DNA of 62,981 nt, filler included, from Rhabdomonas costata (taxonomy: Eukaryota), in assembly GCA_019059605.1 (NCBI GenBank). It is 35 parts of 35 records of this genome, joined end to end, with 100 filler letters (N's around TTAATTAATTAA, not from the genome) between each part and the next. Parts side by side here need not be neighbours in the genome. Positions count along the whole stretch, not along the records: positions 10,816 to 12,518 come from JAHMHO010010387.1; positions 12,619 to 14,322 come from JAHMHO010010388.1; 33 more parts are not named here. One strand, given 5' to 3'. Position 1 is the stretch's first letter. Each line of letters begins with the position of its first letter. A program made the position numbers and the translations under genes. Below are positions 7,210-16,097 of the stretch, piece by piece. Under the pieces are notes generated by a model that worked only from the letters and a program-made list of their open reading frames with translations, did no database searches and had not been told where the DNA came from.

Positions 7210-8912
7210 AAATCCAGTCGGGCGTGAACGCCTGCGATGAGACGGCGTCAGAAGGCAAAGAAAGCTTCGCCGCAGCCAGCGCAGCGGTGTAGCTCCGAAT
7301 TACCGGCCTGCTGGAGTCTGTTGGAAGCGGAACGACTTGGGAGGCATAGACATTCGCGGTGTTCGCCCCAAGCCGGGAGTACAGCGACGAACCTCCACCA
7401 AATGAGCAGCTCACAAAGATCGTCGATGAGGCTAACACTTGCTTCGCTTGGGCGACAAACTCTACCACGGCATCCGTGGCGGCGTACAGCACAATCGCTT
7501 GAGGGGTCTGAGGTGAACCACCAGAGAGGATGTTCCGAAGTGCTGGGCCAACATCAATCGTGTTCCGCTCGTACTGCCCCCGGCTCAGAACCTTGAGCTC
7601 AATAGCCGCAAGCGAGTTGATGAGCGCCTGAAGCCCACCAAGCCCAAATGCATCGTTTTGGTACAGAACCGAAAACCGAGTCACGAAATGGTATCGGGTG
7701 AGGTAATCCACAATCGCCGTGGTCTCGTCTGCATAGGAGGCTCGCAGGTTGATCGTATTTTTGTCAAAGGGCTGCCGAAGACCCATCGTGCCGGTGAAGG
7801 CCCCAACAAAGGGAAACCCCGCGGCCGAGGTAATCGGCGCCACAGCGATCGAGGTCACGGAGCCGTAAAACCCGATCAGCCCGTACACCCCTTGGGCCAT
7901 CAAGGCCTGCGTGTTGGCCAGCGCGGGGCCTGGGTTGTACCCATCGTCTAGGCTCCGAAGCTGCAGAAGGTACCCATGGACCCCTCCACGGCGGTTTTGC
8001 TCGGCAAAGGCCGCACGCACCCCGGCCATCAAAAGAGAACCCGCTTGGGCGTTGAGCCCGGTGAAGGCTGTGCTCTGCCCGAAAACCAGGAACTTCTGAA
8101 GCGCTTCGGGATCCGAATAGCACGAGGAGCATGGAAACGTAAAGCTCCGGGCCAACCGCAGGGATGAACCGAGTGAGGAAGCCGATGCGTCTGGGATGGC
8201 CAACCACACCTCTCGAAGACCTTGCCCACAGTTGGGCGTGAAGGGGCCCATAGCCAGGCCTGAGGCGTTCATTCTTCCTGCGGCATACATTGCGCCCAGA
8301 AACGTCTGGTTGTTGGGTTCCACACTCGCATCGAACTTCCGAAGGGCAGCAAGAAGGAGCTGGGACAATGCGTAGCCTTCCAGTGCCACACTTTCAAGGC
8401 TGATGTTGCCCGCCAGGCTGGGCTGCTGGGCCAACGCACTCGAAAAGGAACTCACCAGCGGGTGGGTGGTTAGCGAGAGCGGAGGCACCACTTGCGAGAT
8501 CACCACAGAGGATAGCGAGGCATGGCTTGCGGTCAGCCCCGACAGAAGCAGCTCGGGCACAATCGTGGCTGAGGTGACGAGGTATTGTGTGGAGGACGGC
8601 AGGAAGGTGTGTGCAGCCACAATGAAGGGCACGACGTCTTCAGATGGGGTCAGAACAAACAAAACCTGCGAAAAAAACAAAAGCAGTGAAATAGCAAACA
8701 ATAATAGCAGAGAAACAAGGCTTTGACAATGATTGCTATCAGTGCTGTCAGCCGATGACAGCGATCAGGAAACTGACAGAACAGGAAAAGAGGAAAATTG
8801 AAAGGAAAAAGAACACGCATGCCTTGGGAACGCCCCCCGTGCGGTTCGTGAAGTTCGCCAGCGCTGCTCGAATCCCCGTCACCCCGCCACCCGCAGCGTA
8901 CCCAACACCCAC
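7210..8912 (-). CDS. Receptor ectodomain with tandem type-1 periplasmic-binding-protein domains, probably a receptor-type adenylate cyclase (exons 8823-8912, 7210-8665)
   Basis: FGQSTAFTGLNAQAG..AAFAEQNRRGGVHG..LRSLDDGYNP..NLRASYADE..LYQNDAFG is a leucine-binding-protein-like fold. The remnant of an earlier copy (SLESVALEGY) lies upstream. Confidence 0.85.
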
Positions 8913-12474: not shown

Positions 12475-12630
12475 CTTTTGGAGTGTGTGTGTGTGCGCGC
12501 GCGCAGGAAAGCGAAACANNNNNNNNNNNNNNNNNNNNNNNNNNNNNNNNNNNNNNNNNNNNTTAATTAATTAANNNNNNNNNNNNNNNNNNNNNNNNNN
12601 NNNNNNNNNNNNNNNNNNGGGTTGTTGGGT

Positions 12631-12885
12631 GAAGTAAAAACCTGAAGTACCAAAAATGTAATATCTAAATATAATATGAATATTACAAAATTACATTTAT
12701 TCAATTTTATTTTAAAATTAAATAGATCAATCTCAACACATGTCATACGTAATGAATTATATCATACATATAAAAAGCTTATGGAATGATGTAGTGATTT
12801 ACATCATTCCATAAACTTAATTATATTTCGAACAATTATTATTAAAGAACGGTTTGAAATAAGAAATGGCAAAGCGGCAAAGCTG
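12631..12885 (-). repeat. AT-rich intergenic module copy A (AAAATTGA promoter motif plus hairpin)
   Basis: Near-identical to 13257-13497 and 13992-14231. TCAATTTT at 12701-12708. 15-bp perfect stem at 12779-12793 / 12800-12814. Confidence 0.92.
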
Positions 12886-13256
12886 AGTAGTAAAGATGGG
12901 ACCAACTCTGGCTCCTCCTAGTCAGGAATGGATCCAGAGCCATGCGGGGAGAAAGATCTTGTGTTCGAGCTCCAGTCTGGAGAATCTCTCGGAGGGCGCG
13001 GTCCATTCTCTAGTTGGTGAGCGATAGGGGTGCCAGTAGTTGTCCCGGAAAGGTAGGCCCTCCGTTCTTTGAAGTAGTCAGGATGGTGGGATAGGGGAAT
13101 GACTCTGAAGAGCAAAGAGCACCCCCTTCAAAAAAGTGAAAGTGGTCTAGGTCCACCCCGTCTAAAGTTTCAAATTTTTTTTTTGCTATTTTGGGTTCGT
13201 TTAAGAACCTGTAAAAATGAACGGCGTAACGCGCGTTACAAAAAGACACTATTTTT

Positions 13257-13497
13257 AAGTAAAAATCGGAAGTACCAAAAATGTAACATCTAAAGATAAT
13301 ATGGATATTACAAAATTTTATTTATTCAATTTTTTAAAATTTTAAATAGATCAATCTCAATACATGTCATACGTAACGAATTATATCATACATATAAAAA
13401 GTTTATGGAATGATGTAGTGATTTACATCATTCCATAAACTTAATTATATTTCGAACAATTATTATTCAAGAACGGTTCGAAACACAAGCAAAGCTG
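13257..13497 (-). repeat. AT-rich intergenic module copy B
   Basis: TCAATTTT at 13326-13333. 19-bp perfect stem at 13399-13417 / 13424-13442. Second stem TTTCGAAC..GTTCGAAA at 13450-13483. Confidence 0.92.
13399..13442 (-). terminator. Palindromic hairpin, candidate giant-virus 3'-end/polyadenylation signal
   Basis: AAGTTTATGGAATGATGTA-gtgatt-TACATCATTCCATAAACTT lies ~95 nt downstream of the stop at 13536. Confidence 0.55.
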
Positions 13498-13535
13498 CGG
13501 ACAAGGTTATTCCGCGACCTAGGGCCCAGATTGGT

Positions 13536-13981
13536 TTACGTGGAAGGAGAGACAGTTTCGTGAGCGACAGGGGGAGTGCTATTTTCCTTTGCCTCCATGG
13601 CGTCACACAAGTCCCTCCACATCCACCTCATTGTTGCGTCGTCGGGTGGTATGTTATATATGCGCGCGATGCGCTCTTCTTCTGGTTCCAAGTCTAATTC
13701 GGATCCGCTGTCCTGCATTGGTTTACATGAAGGAAGGACGAATTCGTAAGCGACAGGAGGAGTGCTTTTTTTTGGGCGTCCTCGGCGTCGCAAAAATCCT
13801 TCCATAACTTTATTAGAGATGGGGGGAAAGGTGGAAGTAAGTTGTGGATGCGCTCGATGCGCTCTTCTTCTGGTTCCAAGTCTAATTCGGAACCGCTGTC
13901 CTTCATTGGTTTACATGAAGGAAGGACAATTTCGTGAGCGACAGGGGAAATTGGTCCGGTGGAGATCTGAGAAACATTCAT
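13536..13981 (-). pseudogene. Intronless small gene with ~2.3 copies of a 62-63 aa repeat and a 1-nt frameshift in an A8 run (13766-13773)
   Basis: PVAHEIVLPSCKPMKDSGSELDLEPEEERI.. and PVAYEFVLPSCKPMQDSGSELDLEPEEERI.. sit in different frames and are joined by adding one A. Repeat anchors at 13931, 13743 and 13557. Confidence 0.7.
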
Positions 13982-13991
13982 TTTCACAATT

Positions 13992-14231
13992 GTAAAAACC
14001 TGAATTACCCCCAAAAAATGTAACATCTAAAGACAATATGGATATTACAAAATTATATTTATTCAATTTTTAAAAATTAAATAGATCACTCTCAACTCAA
14101 CACATGTCATACGTAATGAATTTTATCATACACATAAAAAGTTTATGGAATGATGTAGTGATTTACATTAATAATTATATTTCGAACAATTATTATACAA
14201 GAACGGTTCGAAATATATAAAAGCAAAGCTG
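13992..14231 (-). repeat. AT-rich intergenic module copy C (one hairpin arm partly deleted)
   Basis: TCAATTTT at 14063-14070. The right arm of the palindrome is truncated after TACAT at ~14168. Confidence 0.9.
14063..14070 (-). promoter_or_regulatory. AAAATTGA, Mimiviridae-type early promoter motif
   Basis: Exact octamer ~82 nt upstream of the ATG at 13981, conserved in all three modules. Confidence 0.55.
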
Positions 14232-14422
14232 CGGACAAGTTGTCCTCCGCAAAGTAGTCTTCAAGAAGCACGCCCAGTACATCAGGACAAAAAGTCATAC
14301 TCGTCTTCTTCCACACCCCCCCNNNNNNNNNNNNNNNNNNNNNNNNNNNNNNNNNNNNNNNNNNNNTTAATTAATTAANNNNNNNNNNNNNNNNNNNNNN
14401 NNNNNNNNNNNNNNNNNNNNNN

Positions 14423-16097
14423 GTGGGGGGGTCTTCCCGTCCCAGCTGCGGGGGTCCACGTCGGCGTTTAACTCGAGGAGATTCAGCCCTAGCTGGGTGT
14501 GGCGACCCCTGACCGTGTACAGCAGAGGAGTCACCTTGGAGTTGTTTTTGGCGTTGATGTCCCCTCCCATCTCCAGAATCTTCAGGCACACCTCCGTGTG
14601 GCCTCCAGCAGCGGCGTGCAACGCCGGTGTGTTTCCGTCCCCGTCCTTTGCGTAGACACTGGCGTTCAGCTCCAGCATCCTCAGGCACACCTCAGTGAGC
14701 CCGTTGGAGATGGCTGACATCAGCGGCGTCCTGCCAGACCTCTCCTTGGCGTTGACGTCAGCGTTCAACTCGAGAAGCTTCATGCACATCTCCGTCTGGC
14801 CCATCTGCGCCGCACAGGCCAAAAGGGTTTCTCCATGCTCCCCCTGGGCGTTCACGTCGGCCTTCATCTCCAGCATTTTCAGGCAGACCTCGGTTAGGCT
14901 CTTCTCGATTGCGTACATCACAGAGGTTTTCTTCGTCCTATCCATGGCACGGACGTCCGCCCGAAGCTCCAGTAGCTTCAGGCAAATTCCGGTGTGGCCC
15001 TTGCGGGCTGCATTGATCAGCGGGGTCTCCGCGGAGCTGTTCCTGGCATTGATGTCAGCGTTGCACGCCGTCAACCTTTCGCAGGTTTCCACGTGACCCT
15101 TCTGCGCCGCATACATCACCGGGGTATCCCCAAACGCGTCCGTGGCGTTAACATCCGCGTTCAGCTCAACCAGCCGCAGACAGACCGCGGTGTGCCCGTT
15201 CCAGGCGGCAAACATCATAGCAGACGCGCCAAACCTATCAACCACGTGGACGTTGGCGTTCAGCGAGACCAACGTCACGCATATTTGGGCCAAGCCCCTT
15301 TGGGCAGCGTACATAACAGGGGTCTCCAACGACTGATTCGTACTACAGGGGTCGGCATTTAGCTCCAGCAACTTCAGGCAGACGTCGGGGAGTCCCGCGC
15401 CAGCGGCGTACATCAGCGGGGATACCCCGGTACTGTCCATAGCGCGAACGCTGGCGTTAAGTTCCAAAAGTTTCAGAGAGACGTCGCCGAGACCACTCTG
15501 TGCGGCATACTTGAGGTGGGTCTTTCCAGAAAGGTCTTCCGCGTTGACTTCGGCGTTGAGCTGGAGCAGTTTCAGGCAGACCTCGCCTAGACCGTTGGTG
15601 GCAGCAAACATGAAAGGTGTCCGCCCCAAGCCGTCCTTCGCGTTGACTTCGGCATTGATGTCAAGAAGCTTCATGCAAACCGGAGTGAGGCCCGCACCGG
15701 CAGCGTACATCAAAGGAGTAACCAGGGAGTTGTCTTTAATCCCAACATCCGCCTTTTGTTCGACCATCTTTAGACAGACCTCTGTCAGGCCACTCATAGC
15801 GGCGTGCATCACAGGAGTTCTCCCCGAGCTGTCCTTCAAGTTGACTTCAGCGTCCAGCTCGAGCAGCCTCAAACAAACCTCCGCGAGGCCCTTCTTAGTG
15901 GCATATTCCATCGCGGTCATGTCGAGCTCGTCCTTCAGATTCGGGTCGCACGGCTCCATCATAAGATGCATGACTCTAGGAAGGTTGTCCTCCTTGAGAG
16001 CTTGAACCAACGCCTCCCCATTGATTGCACGCTGAGCCAGTTGATTGGCAGCGCCCTCCTGGGCCTCCTCCTCGGTGACCTCCGCCAGTTCAAAAAC
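14423..16097 (-). CDS. Ankyrin-repeat protein (~16 repeats of 33 aa), single long exon, truncated
   Basis: G.TPLMYAA..G..EVCLKLLELNADVNAKD recurs every 33 aa. TTTAG acceptor at 16098. Confidence 0.95.

Follow-up and report, generated by a model that had tools for sequence, protein, structure and literature searches.

What produces a short contig in which three near-identical, AT-rich blocks alternate with unrelated, GC-richer DNA? The contig lies in a window of 62,981 nt (the whole stretch of DNA that was analysed) from the Rhabdomonas costata assembly GCA_019059605.1, in which 35 unrelated contigs of 1699-1714 bp each are joined by N/TTAATTAATTAA linkers. Since the array is one entire contig among 35 that were concatenated, its genomic context is confined to positions 12619-14322. 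GC content is 48.3-58.2% in the remaining 34 contigs, a range compatible with the ~51% published for two fragmented drafts of euglenids (PMC8219788, PMC12455990), compared with 38.1% in this one. Across the 35 contigs, AT-rich islands longer than 250 bp were found within 12619-14322 only; three shorter islands (105-152 bp, 30-32% GC) occur in other contigs of the window. G/C homopolymer runs terminate the contig at both ends. As a test for a circular contig, we searched its ends for an overlap of at least 8 nt and found none, a result that a circle could also give. Neither a Nucleocytoviricota hallmark nor any other recognisable gene was detected on the 1.7-kb contig.

The features of the contig are listed in Table 1. 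An earlier note on this DNA had placed three copies of a repeated module at 12631, 13257 and 13992, and these positions hold. The modules (M1, M2 and M3) are direct copies of ~250 bp. Pairwise blastn gave identities of 92.6% over 230 nt for M1 and M2 (E 1.6e-93), 85.0% over 260 nt for M2 and M3, and 83.5% over 254 nt for M1 and M3, and 205 of the 288 columns are invariant in a three-way alignment. All three copies lie in this 1.7-kb contig and none in the other 34 (~58 kb), a clustering that makes independent insertions of a dispersed repeat unlikely. Exact or gapped patterns of the module had no matches in viral, metagenome and genome contig collections, and the whole contig had no blastn match among phages and plasmids.

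Table 1. Coordinates of the array features, counted along the whole window
Feature	Position	Strand	Remarks
Contig holding the array	12619..14322	.	1704 bp, 38.1% GC, N/TTAATTAATTAA linkers on both sides
Module M1	12632..12878, its CAGCTTTGC to 12886	-	22.7% GC over 12632-12878
Module M2	13257..13505	-	24.9% GC; best preserved copy
Module M3	13992..14239	-	25.4% GC; most diverged copy
Cassette C1	12887..13256	-	No ORF close to module
Cassette C2	13506..13991	-	Tandem unit of ~187 bp, about 2.3 copies (13530-13947)
Cassette C3	14240..14322	-	Cut by contig end
Candidate gene of C2	13536..13981	-	ATG 13979-13981, stop 13536-13538
Hairpin 1 of M1	12822-12861	-	One internal mismatch
Hairpin 1 of M2	13446..13488	-	TTTCGAAC...GTTCGAAA, 12-13 bp stem
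Hairpin 1 of M3	14175-14217	-	
Hairpin 2 of M1	12775-12818	-	19-bp stem, one G-U pair on minus-strand RNA
Hairpin 2 of M2	13399..13442	-	Perfect 19-bp stem, 6-nt loop
Hairpin 2 remnant of M3	~14139-14168	-	Right arm only
AAAATTGA in M1	12701-12708	-	Within invariant AAAATTGAATAAAT
AAAATTGA in M2	13326-13333	-	Within invariant AAAATTGAATAAAT
AAAATTGA in M3	14063-14070	-	Within invariant AAAATTGAATAAAT; 82-89 nt upstream of C2 ATG

The alternation of a constant AT-rich module with unrelated, GC-richer cargo was likewise borne out (23-25% versus 48-51% GC). The cassettes between the modules measure 378 bp at 47.6% GC (C1), 486 bp at 49.2% GC (C2) and 83 bp at 50.6% GC (C3), and they have no clear codon-position bias. 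Smith-Waterman scores were 24 for C1 and C2 (highest shuffle score 29) and 19 for C1 and C3 (highest shuffle score 22). C2 and C3 share the ~25 nt next to the module (GCGGA...CTTGTCCGCAGCTTTGC) and otherwise show shuffle-level similarity. Because the modules are 83-93% identical and the cassettes lack similarity above shuffles, either constraint or conversion has acted on the module, or cargo has been replaced at its borders. The contig is best explained as a few small cassettes in tandem, parted by copies of one intergenic module whose composition is foreign.

On the minus strand, each unit runs from a conserved cassette tail through hairpin 1, hairpin 2, an unstructured A/T half containing AAAATTGAATAAAT, and a leader into the cassette, so that the proposed order of hairpins, AAAATTGA, leader and cassette was confirmed. 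The TTTCGAAC stem was found in all three modules. The palindrome of 15-19 bp ascribed to each module is present in two of the three (19 bp in M1 and M2) but not in M3, where a 10-nt deletion took the left arm of hairpin 2. The M2 RNA has a predicted folding energy of -62.6 kcal/mol (z -6.95); the hairpin half folds strongly (z -5.5 in M1 and -7.7 in M2), and the half bearing the motif is unstructured (z -0.7 to +0.1). The stop codon of the C2 candidate gene is followed within 140 nt by stems of 13 bp and 19 bp. The same stem pair occurs in M1, and M3 retains the first stem only. By eye, single substitutions in M1 leave a G-U pair only on minus-strand RNA in hairpin 2 and only on plus-strand RNA in hairpin 1; with one such case per hairpin, they favour neither strand for the hairpins.

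The second half of the module carries AAAATTGA in all three copies, as the earlier note had it, at a distance of 69-71 nt to the module end rather than ~80 nt to the cassette. The invariant run that holds the motif is 14 nt long and is one of 10 invariant runs of at least 8 nt, the longest of which measure 24 and 26 nt. Greater conservation of AAAATTGA than of the neighbouring AT-rich bases, which the note had proposed as its own test, was therefore not seen, although a comparison of three copies has almost no power. In shuffled modules, the motif, which was picked post hoc, arises by chance in ~2% of cases on the strand that has the hairpins before it and the cargo after it, and in 6-7% on either strand. 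Since the three modules descend from one another, its occurrence counts as one event. The first ATG of C2 lies within the ~150 nt that we allowed between motif and start codon, and that of C1, ~320 nt from the M2 motif, lies outside; the contig does not extend to C0 or to the cargo of M1.

The module had also been said to drive unrelated small genes, a claim that fits one of the two complete cassettes, whose ORF is frameshifted. This ORF, in C2, begins 10 nt past the module and ends ~30 nt short of the next. Its frame is broken once, at a T8/A8 run (13766-13773) in which unit 2 of the tandem repeat has 1 nt more than unit 1. With one frameshift allowed in the A-run, the reading frame would occupy ~92% of the cassette; as they stand, the two pieces encode P0001 (95 aa) and P0002 (89 aa). 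In C1, the first minus-strand ATG, at 13006, starts a frame of 54 codons whose end lies in the loop of hairpin 1 of M1, and the initial ~110 nt of the cassette (13150-13256) are AT-rich.

We then searched for relatives of these products, including two frames of C1 (P0005 and P0006). P0001 matched no Pfam family at E<=0.01, and P0001, P0005 and P0006 had no relatives among the proteins of similar length in a set of 5.8 billion. P0002 gave two weak matches to repeat proteins among 1.84 billion representatives, P0003 (CENP-B_N x5) and P0004 (HTH_32 x6), at 30 bits and 36% identity over 44 aa per repeat. P0002, P0005 and P0006 had no match in a viral contig collection, and a protein atlas yielded no usable match for the cassette proteins. 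AlphaFold2, run on P0002 without an alignment, predicted helices at residues 41-49 and 56-74 with a mean pLDDT of 59. A model of that pLDDT is too weak for a fold search, and a region of the helix-turn-helix type is no more than a hint.

We tentatively favour a giant-virus-type boundary, combining terminator and promoter, as the best single explanation for the module. The structured first half, with its two hairpins, would terminate the upstream transcript, and the unstructured A/T-rich half, with the early-promoter core AAAATTGA and a shared leader of ~70 nt, would start the next. The module would have been copied as a unit beside unrelated cargo, and its copies would probably provide the homology by which recombination exchanges, gains or loses cargo, as in the PeSL cassettes of T4-type phages. 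The contig would most likely be decayed giant-virus DNA, or a selfish element using giant-virus signals, that either became integrated into a eukaryote of ~52% GC or was assembled together with it. The sequence itself shows the repeat architecture, the contrast in composition, the hairpins, the place of the motif and that of the C2 ORF, from which transcription, termination, a viral origin and recombination are inferred. For a single isolated 1.7-kb contig without relatives in the collections searched, the resemblance to giant-virus boundaries is unproven.

The two precedents on which the earlier note relied, AAAATTGA as a giant-virus early promoter and hairpins at Mimiviridae transcript ends, are both in print (PMC5294985, PMC4402537). 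In mimivirus, 45% of genes are reported to have AAAATTGA within 150 nt upstream (PMC5294985), and Mimiviridae transcripts are described as terminating at palindromes that form hairpins (PMC4402537). The boundaries described in Mimiviridae resemble those in our contig in being AT-rich and intergenic and in running, on one strand, from hairpin to AAAATTGA to a start codon within 150 nt, as for C2 (PMC5294985, PMC4402537). In contrast to them, the entire ~250-bp boundary is repeated here at 83-93% identity, and it comes with a shared leader of ~70 nt, cargo of ~50% GC and no linked viral gene. A conserved leader of this size looks long for known giant-virus genes, a point against the viral reading.

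A more specific assignment to an Imitervirales-like virus, as the earlier note proposed, was not supported. The contig carries no viral gene, and the same motif is reported as an early promoter of the Asfuvirales pacmanvirus, where 44% of genes have it, and of ASFV (PMC11788076). Moreover, the only giant-virus insertions described in Euglena gracilis are Asfuvirales (PMC12455990). Asfuvirales signals do not fit at the 3' end. Termination in ASFV is described as occurring at poly(T), without hairpins (PMC7163114), and the 3' motif reported for pacmanvirus is T-rich (PMC11788076). The modules contain no minus-strand run of at least 7 T, the longest read from the sequence being 5-6, and nothing in them matches the Asfuvirales-type 3' signal (~7 T or a WWTTTATTTTTTAWW-like motif). 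Lacking such a run, they are at odds with the termination signals of the sole viral order reported from Euglena.

Two Asfuvirales-related systems are comparable. The pacmanvirus episome is of similar size (1.9 kb, here 1.7 kb) and holds three genes preceded by AAAATTGA, as there are three cassettes here, but it is described as having 30% GC throughout, three paralogous genes and a T-rich 3' signal without a hairpin (PMC11788076). Pacmanvirus itself is placed close to the Euglena insertions in capsid trees (PMC12455990). In E. gracilis, eight giant-virus insertions of 25-37% GC and >90% coding density have been described in a genome of ~51% GC (PMC12455990). These elements, which we compared by description, are alike in being low-GC DNA in such a genome and unlike in their size (86-311 kb), hallmark genes and dense coding; they are described as eroded, as bearing duplications and tandem repeats, and as invaded by transposons (PMC12455990). 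Given their GC content and coding density, their genes must be AT-rich, and the cassette cargo at 48-51% GC therefore counts against the viral reading. So do the lack of an ORF near the module in C1, the frameshift in C2 and the loss of the long hairpin in M3.

We consider one further form of the viral reading unlikely, if worth stating. A giant virus of a protist of ~52% GC, or a parasite of that virus, may maintain cassettes in which an AT-rich expression unit, made up of terminator hairpins, early promoter and leader, is joined to cargo of host-like composition, with the repeat serving as a recombination joint for capture, swap and excision, possibly through circles of ~1.7 kb. Such an array would be the eukaryotic-virus counterpart of the phage PeSL, recruiting host-derived DNA for the viral polymerase. 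In T4-type phages, PeSL cassettes, each a promoter plus a stem-loop, mediate the shuffling of ORFans (PMC2839356). They are similar to our modules in that repeated units of promoter and terminator hairpin flank small genes without homologues and offer homology for modular shuffling, whereas they use sigma-70 promoters, belong to bacteriophages and have had recombination and mini-circles demonstrated experimentally, where we have the layout alone (PMC2839356).

Integrons were the comparison chosen in the earlier note. Integron arrays share with our contig a constant imperfect palindrome that alternates, in one orientation, with short unrelated cassettes; here, the module is twice as long as attC sites usually are, half of it is promoter-like, and the setting is eukaryotic or viral. 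The hallmarks of integrons are attC sites with RYYYAAC ... GTTRRRY cores and the IntI integrase. A RYYYAAC/GTTRRRY pair on one strand was found in none of the three modules, and no frame of the 1.7-kb contig matched a Pfam family, tyrosine-recombinase integrases included. We therefore regard "integron-like" as an unsupported label, together with "Imitervirales" and "euglenid".

If the viral reading is true, giant-virus-type expression signals have been copied en bloc to unrelated DNA that resembles the host in composition, within a protist lineage from which only eroded Asfuvirales insertions have been reported so far. Such viruses, or parasites of theirs, would thereby have a concrete way to take up and try out new genes. 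If it is false, what remains is an unusual AT-rich repeat array of small size within a genome rich in repeats, and its interest is local.

The latter case is a credible possibility. A purely cellular repeat array would have no viral link; its cassettes would be spacers or captured fragments and AAAATTGA a chance 8-mer in DNA of 24% GC. The module would be a structured, non-coding repeat, whether of the host or of an organism cultured with it: it could belong to a complex satellite or a subtelomeric mosaic, be one of a cluster of genes for small or hairpin RNAs, or be a non-autonomous mobile element. Mobile and satellite DNA often contains long perfect palindromes, which speaks for such an origin. 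The chance frequency of AAAATTGA on either strand and its lack of special conservation point the same way, as do the host-like GC of the cargo, the absence of a plausible gene from one of the two complete cassettes, and the similarity, weak as it is, of the C2 unit to transposase-type helix-turn-helix repeats only. More than half of the Euglena genome is reported to be repeats (PMC12455990). Against a cellular array, a tandem repeat that decayed neutrally and evenly would not retain modules at 83-93% identity beside cassettes of zero similarity, an element of 24% GC is exceptional among the 35 contigs, and the absence of copies from the other 58 kb argues against an abundant dispersed element. 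Rfam, applied to the whole window at gathering scores, returned no matches. We rejected a MITE or other non-autonomous transposon. The inverted similarity of the ends is at shuffle level in all three modules (of 500 shuffles, 305-500 equal or exceed the observed score), which leaves no terminal inverted repeats, and the best flanking direct repeats, of 4-6 nt, lie at inconsistent offsets and form no consistent flanking duplication. Helitrons end in 5' TC and in 3' CTRR after a hairpin; inspection by eye for such ends and for box C/D snoRNA motifs revealed nothing convincing.

We consider it improbable that the module is real and the array an artefact of assembly or amplification, in which short reads were threaded through an AT-rich repeat or whole-genome amplification created a chimera. 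The contig is only 1.7 kb, comes from an assembly so fragmented that 35 near-equal contigs fill the window, and stops at both ends in the G/C runs; one fragmented euglenid draft was obtained from amplified DNA (PMC8219788). However, the module copies differ at 7-17% of positions and by indels, which marks them as three separate loci and not as a single repeat that was collapsed. A walk through the assembly graph would have needed three different copies, with a distinct pair of unique flanks attached to every one.

Introner-type elements look like near-identical, AT-rich, structured inserts in GC-richer DNA, and the modules could on that ground be introns, either introners or MITE-like nonconventional introns of euglenids, with the cassettes as exons of a minus-strand gene. 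A MITE-like origin has been proposed for the nonconventional introns (PMC3935182). We rejected this reading as very unlikely, since no frame is open from border to border in C1 or C2, C2 would take three frames to cross and carries a start near one end and a stop near the other, a candidate AG at the module 3' end is missing in M2, and the M2 fold lacks the end-to-end stem described as the defining pairing of nonconventional introns (PMC3935182). Equally remote is an origin from a recombining organelle genome or from a nuclear copy of such DNA, for which the module GC is organelle-like and the mitochondrial DNA of E. gracilis, described as linear pieces of ~4 kb that have repeats at their ends and many small fragments of genes, offers a model (PMC4700960), but which is opposed by the cassette GC of 48-51%, by the lack of Rfam rRNA or tRNA matches, and by a Pfam search of 14 stop-to-stop frames of the contig, read with TGA as Trp (code 4), that returned no family at or above cut-off, hence no cox, cob or nad fragments, and led us to reject mitochondrial fragments. 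Below the gathering scores, the contig gave five Rfam matches (E 0.12-0.59), four to microRNA precursor families and one to a lncRNA.

The Rhabdomonas costata array is real and odd, and its layout mimics a giant-virus gene boundary. It occupies 12619-14322, exactly one contig of 1,704 bp, with a GC content of 38.1% versus 48.3-58.2% in the other 34. The 35 segments of the window (1,699-1,714 bp each) are joined by 34 identical linkers (N run, TTAATTAATTAA, N run) and are unrelated small contigs from a very fragmented assembly, apparently chained in order of length. Because this chain is artificial, features spanning a linker and genes across one have no real context. Both borders of the module-bearing contig are G/C-rich homopolymer-like runs, GGGTTGTTGGGTG at 12619-12631 (left) and CCACACCCCCCC at 14311-14322 (right), which are likely places where short-read assembly broke. 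No terminal overlap of at least 8 nt was detected between its two ends.

The contig carries three copies of an AT-rich module (M1 to M3; 22.7-25.4% GC) alternating with unrelated, GC-richer cassettes (C1 to C3), and the module positions and the alternation that the earlier note had described were confirmed. M1 and M2 are 92.6% identical over 230 nt (E = 1.6e-93), M2 and M3 85.0% over 260 nt, and M1 and M3 83.5% over 254 nt; 205 of 288 columns are invariant in the three-module alignment. Of the 35 contigs, this one alone has AT-rich islands exceeding 250 bp; three shorter ones (105-152 bp) lie on other contigs. No further module copy was found in the other ~58 kb of the window. Three copies in 1.7 kb versus none in ~58 kb make it unlikely that a dispersed element inserted independently each time. 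Local alignment scores of C1 with C2 and with C3 fell within the shuffle range, indicating no nucleotide similarity. C2 and C3 have only their last ~25 nt in common, and these nucleotides therefore belong to the module. Modules that are 83-93% identical, set against cargo without similarity, speak against a simple tandem repeat that decayed uniformly. The module has been kept by selection or conversion, or else cargo has been exchanged at module borders.

Module copies (M) and cargo cassettes (C) of the array
Feature	Position	Type	Length	GC
M1	12632-12878(86)	direct repeat	~250 bp	
M2	13257-13505	direct repeat	~250 bp	
M3	13992-14239	direct repeat	~250 bp	
C1		cassette	378 bp	47.6%
C2		cassette	486 bp	49.2%
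C3		cassette	83 bp, cut by contig end	50.6%

Read on the minus strand, the module runs from a conserved tail (GCGGA...CTTGTCCGCAGCTTTGC) through two hairpins into an unstructured A/T-rich half. Hairpin 1 (TTTCGAAC...GTTCGAAA) has a stem of 12-13 bp; in M1 and M2, hairpin 2 pairs perfectly over 19 bp around a 6-nt loop. The long palindrome had been claimed for every module; it holds for these two copies, and in M3 a 10-nt deletion has removed its left arm. Over its full length, M2 has a fold energy of -62.6 kcal/mol (z = -6.95), matched by none of 200 shuffles. For M1, M2 and M3, respectively, fold z-scores are -5.5, -7.7 and -2.6 in the hairpin half and -0.7, +0.1 and -0.2 in the second half. 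This second half contains the invariant AAAATTGAATAAAT, and its promoter-like motif lies 69-71 nt from the last shared bases (...GGTTTTTAC).

Like most of the module, this motif, AAAATTGA, is identical in all three copies. Its invariant run is 14 nt long, one of ten such runs of at least 8 nt, two of which are longer (24 and 26 nt). Aligned over only three copies, the motif is no more conserved than its neighbouring bases, an outcome that the earlier note had named as one half of what would refute its own reading. In shuffled modules (20,000 shuffles each), the 8-mer arises by chance in 5.9-6.8% on either strand and in 1.7-2.1% on a given strand. Across the window the motif is not enriched (6 matches versus 3.4 expected; 13 of 100 shuffles reach 6). 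Because the module copies descend from one another, their three motifs amount to one event, picked post hoc. The sequence evidence for a promoter is suggestive, not strong.

The modules had been proposed to drive unrelated small genes, which fits one of the two complete cassettes, the damaged gene of C2, and fails for C1, where we found only overlapping short frames, the first start codon being 250 nt past the module. C2 comprises about 2.3 copies of a ~187-bp unit. On the minus strand, its ATG (13979-13981) lies 10 nt past the module, and ~30 nt separate its stop (13536-13538) from the conserved tail of the next module; if read through, the frame would fill ~92% of the cassette. A single break interrupts it, at an A8 run (13766-13773) in which unit 1 lacks 1 nt relative to unit 2. 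Neither resulting piece, P0001 (95 aa) or P0002 (89 aa), matched a Pfam family at E ≤ 0.01 or above cut-off, and P0001 had no homologue among 5.8 billion proteins, of which only those of similar length were compared. When 1.84 billion representatives were searched with P0002, two proteins reached E ≤ 0.001, each of them made of transposase-type helix-turn-helix domains in tandem (CENP-B_N x5 and HTH_32 x6). The apparent E of 1.5e-10 arises by summing five weak matches that are identical (30 bits, 36% over 44 aa each), and for P0002 an AlphaFold2 run lacking an alignment yielded a poor model (pLDDT 59; two helices, 41-49 and 56-74). The C2 product is possibly a degenerate DNA-binding repeat. 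No homologues of two C1 frames were found by protein search or in viral_contigs. GC3 of the cassette frames (0.47-0.61) is without the excess seen in long ORFs of other contigs (0.65-0.74 in three of five). In C1, the ~110 nt nearest the module (13150-13256, minus strand) are themselves AT-rich and include a palindrome (GTAACGCGCGTTAC), another TTTTTAC, and an A11 run leading into TTTGAAAC that loosely resembles the AAAATTGA region; they may be a decayed partial module.

Four DNA patterns from the module and three cassette proteins gave no match in viral_contigs, nor did module patterns in metagenome_contigs or genome_contigs. Phage and plasmid records (blastn) and Rfam at gathering scores likewise gave none; five sub-threshold Rfam matches fell on the module-bearing contig (four microRNA precursor families and one lncRNA).

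Passages of the literature agree with, and widen, the premises that the motif is a giant-virus early promoter and that transcripts end in hairpins. Of the mimivirus genes, 45% have AAAATTGA no more than 150 nt from the start codon, and an iridovirus promoter depends on a related word (passages of PMC5294985). Hairpin-forming palindromes mark transcript ends in Mimiviridae (PMC4402537). According to sections of PMC11788076, pacmanvirus has AAAATTGA for 44% of genes, ASFV is said to be reported with the same motif, and a 1.9-kb pacmanvirus episome holds three paralogous genes with the motif before each. Since these are Asfuvirales, the motif does not point to Imitervirales, and the label "Imitervirales-like" is not supported. 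The genome of Euglena gracilis (~51% GC) harbours eight giant-virus insertions, eroded and of 25-37% GC, which are placed in Asfuvirales and whose capsid genes fall close to pacmanvirus (passages of PMC12455990). Were the host Euglena, one would first suspect an Asfuvirales source. The ~50% GC of the cargo here, however, is unlike those insertions, and the module has neither the poly(T) terminator, without hairpins, described for ASFV (passages of PMC7163114) nor the T-rich 3' motif of pacmanvirus (same sections of PMC11788076).

We tentatively propose, as the likeliest single reading though at less than even odds, that the hairpin half would end and process the upstream transcript, the A/T half would recruit a viral-type polymerase at AAAATTGA, a common leader would precede the cargo start codon, and repeated units would recombine with one another, with duplication, replacement or loss of cargo as the result. 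PeSL cassettes of T4-type phages, in which recombination between repeated units was shown experimentally (PMC2839356), are the model for this last step. The array is possibly a new variant of repeated terminator-promoter cassettes; the evidence comprises one 1.7-kb contig with three non-independent module copies and a single damaged ORF, for which no relatives were found.

A cellular repeat array bearing the motif by chance is a possible, slightly less probable reading: host-like cargo, weak motif statistics and the transposase-like hint in C2 favor it, against which stand the local clustering of copies, the exceptional composition of the modules and the lack of terminal inverted repeats or target duplications at them. 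Misassembly or an amplification chimera is improbable, the three distinct copies arguing against collapse. It is very unlikely that the modules are introns, given no frame continuity across cassettes, module ends that do not pair and a candidate acceptor AG absent in M2. Organelle DNA is equally hard to credit, with no cox, cob or nad fragments on the contig when frames are read with TGA as Trp and no rRNA found by Rfam. An "integron-like" array was rejected: none of the three modules has the attC core pair, and the contig carries no integrase.

Other contigs of the window hold features of their own. A 558-aa ORF at 14424-16097 (minus strand), open at both contig ends, is built almost entirely from ankyrin repeats of 33 aa (Ank_2, E = 2.2e-87), with a 99-nt DNA period visible as 12-13 repeat copies; it adjoins the module contig in the window only, which is not genomic context. 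An open frame of 518 aa at 7211-8764 (minus strand) encodes a periplasmic-binding-protein/ANF-receptor ligand-binding domain (Peripla_BP_6, E = 2e-35) and runs off its contig. Another contig opens with a 74-nt inverted repeat (10819-10892/11116-11189; 91% complementary, arms 223 nt apart), which could be a foldback or MITE-like element.
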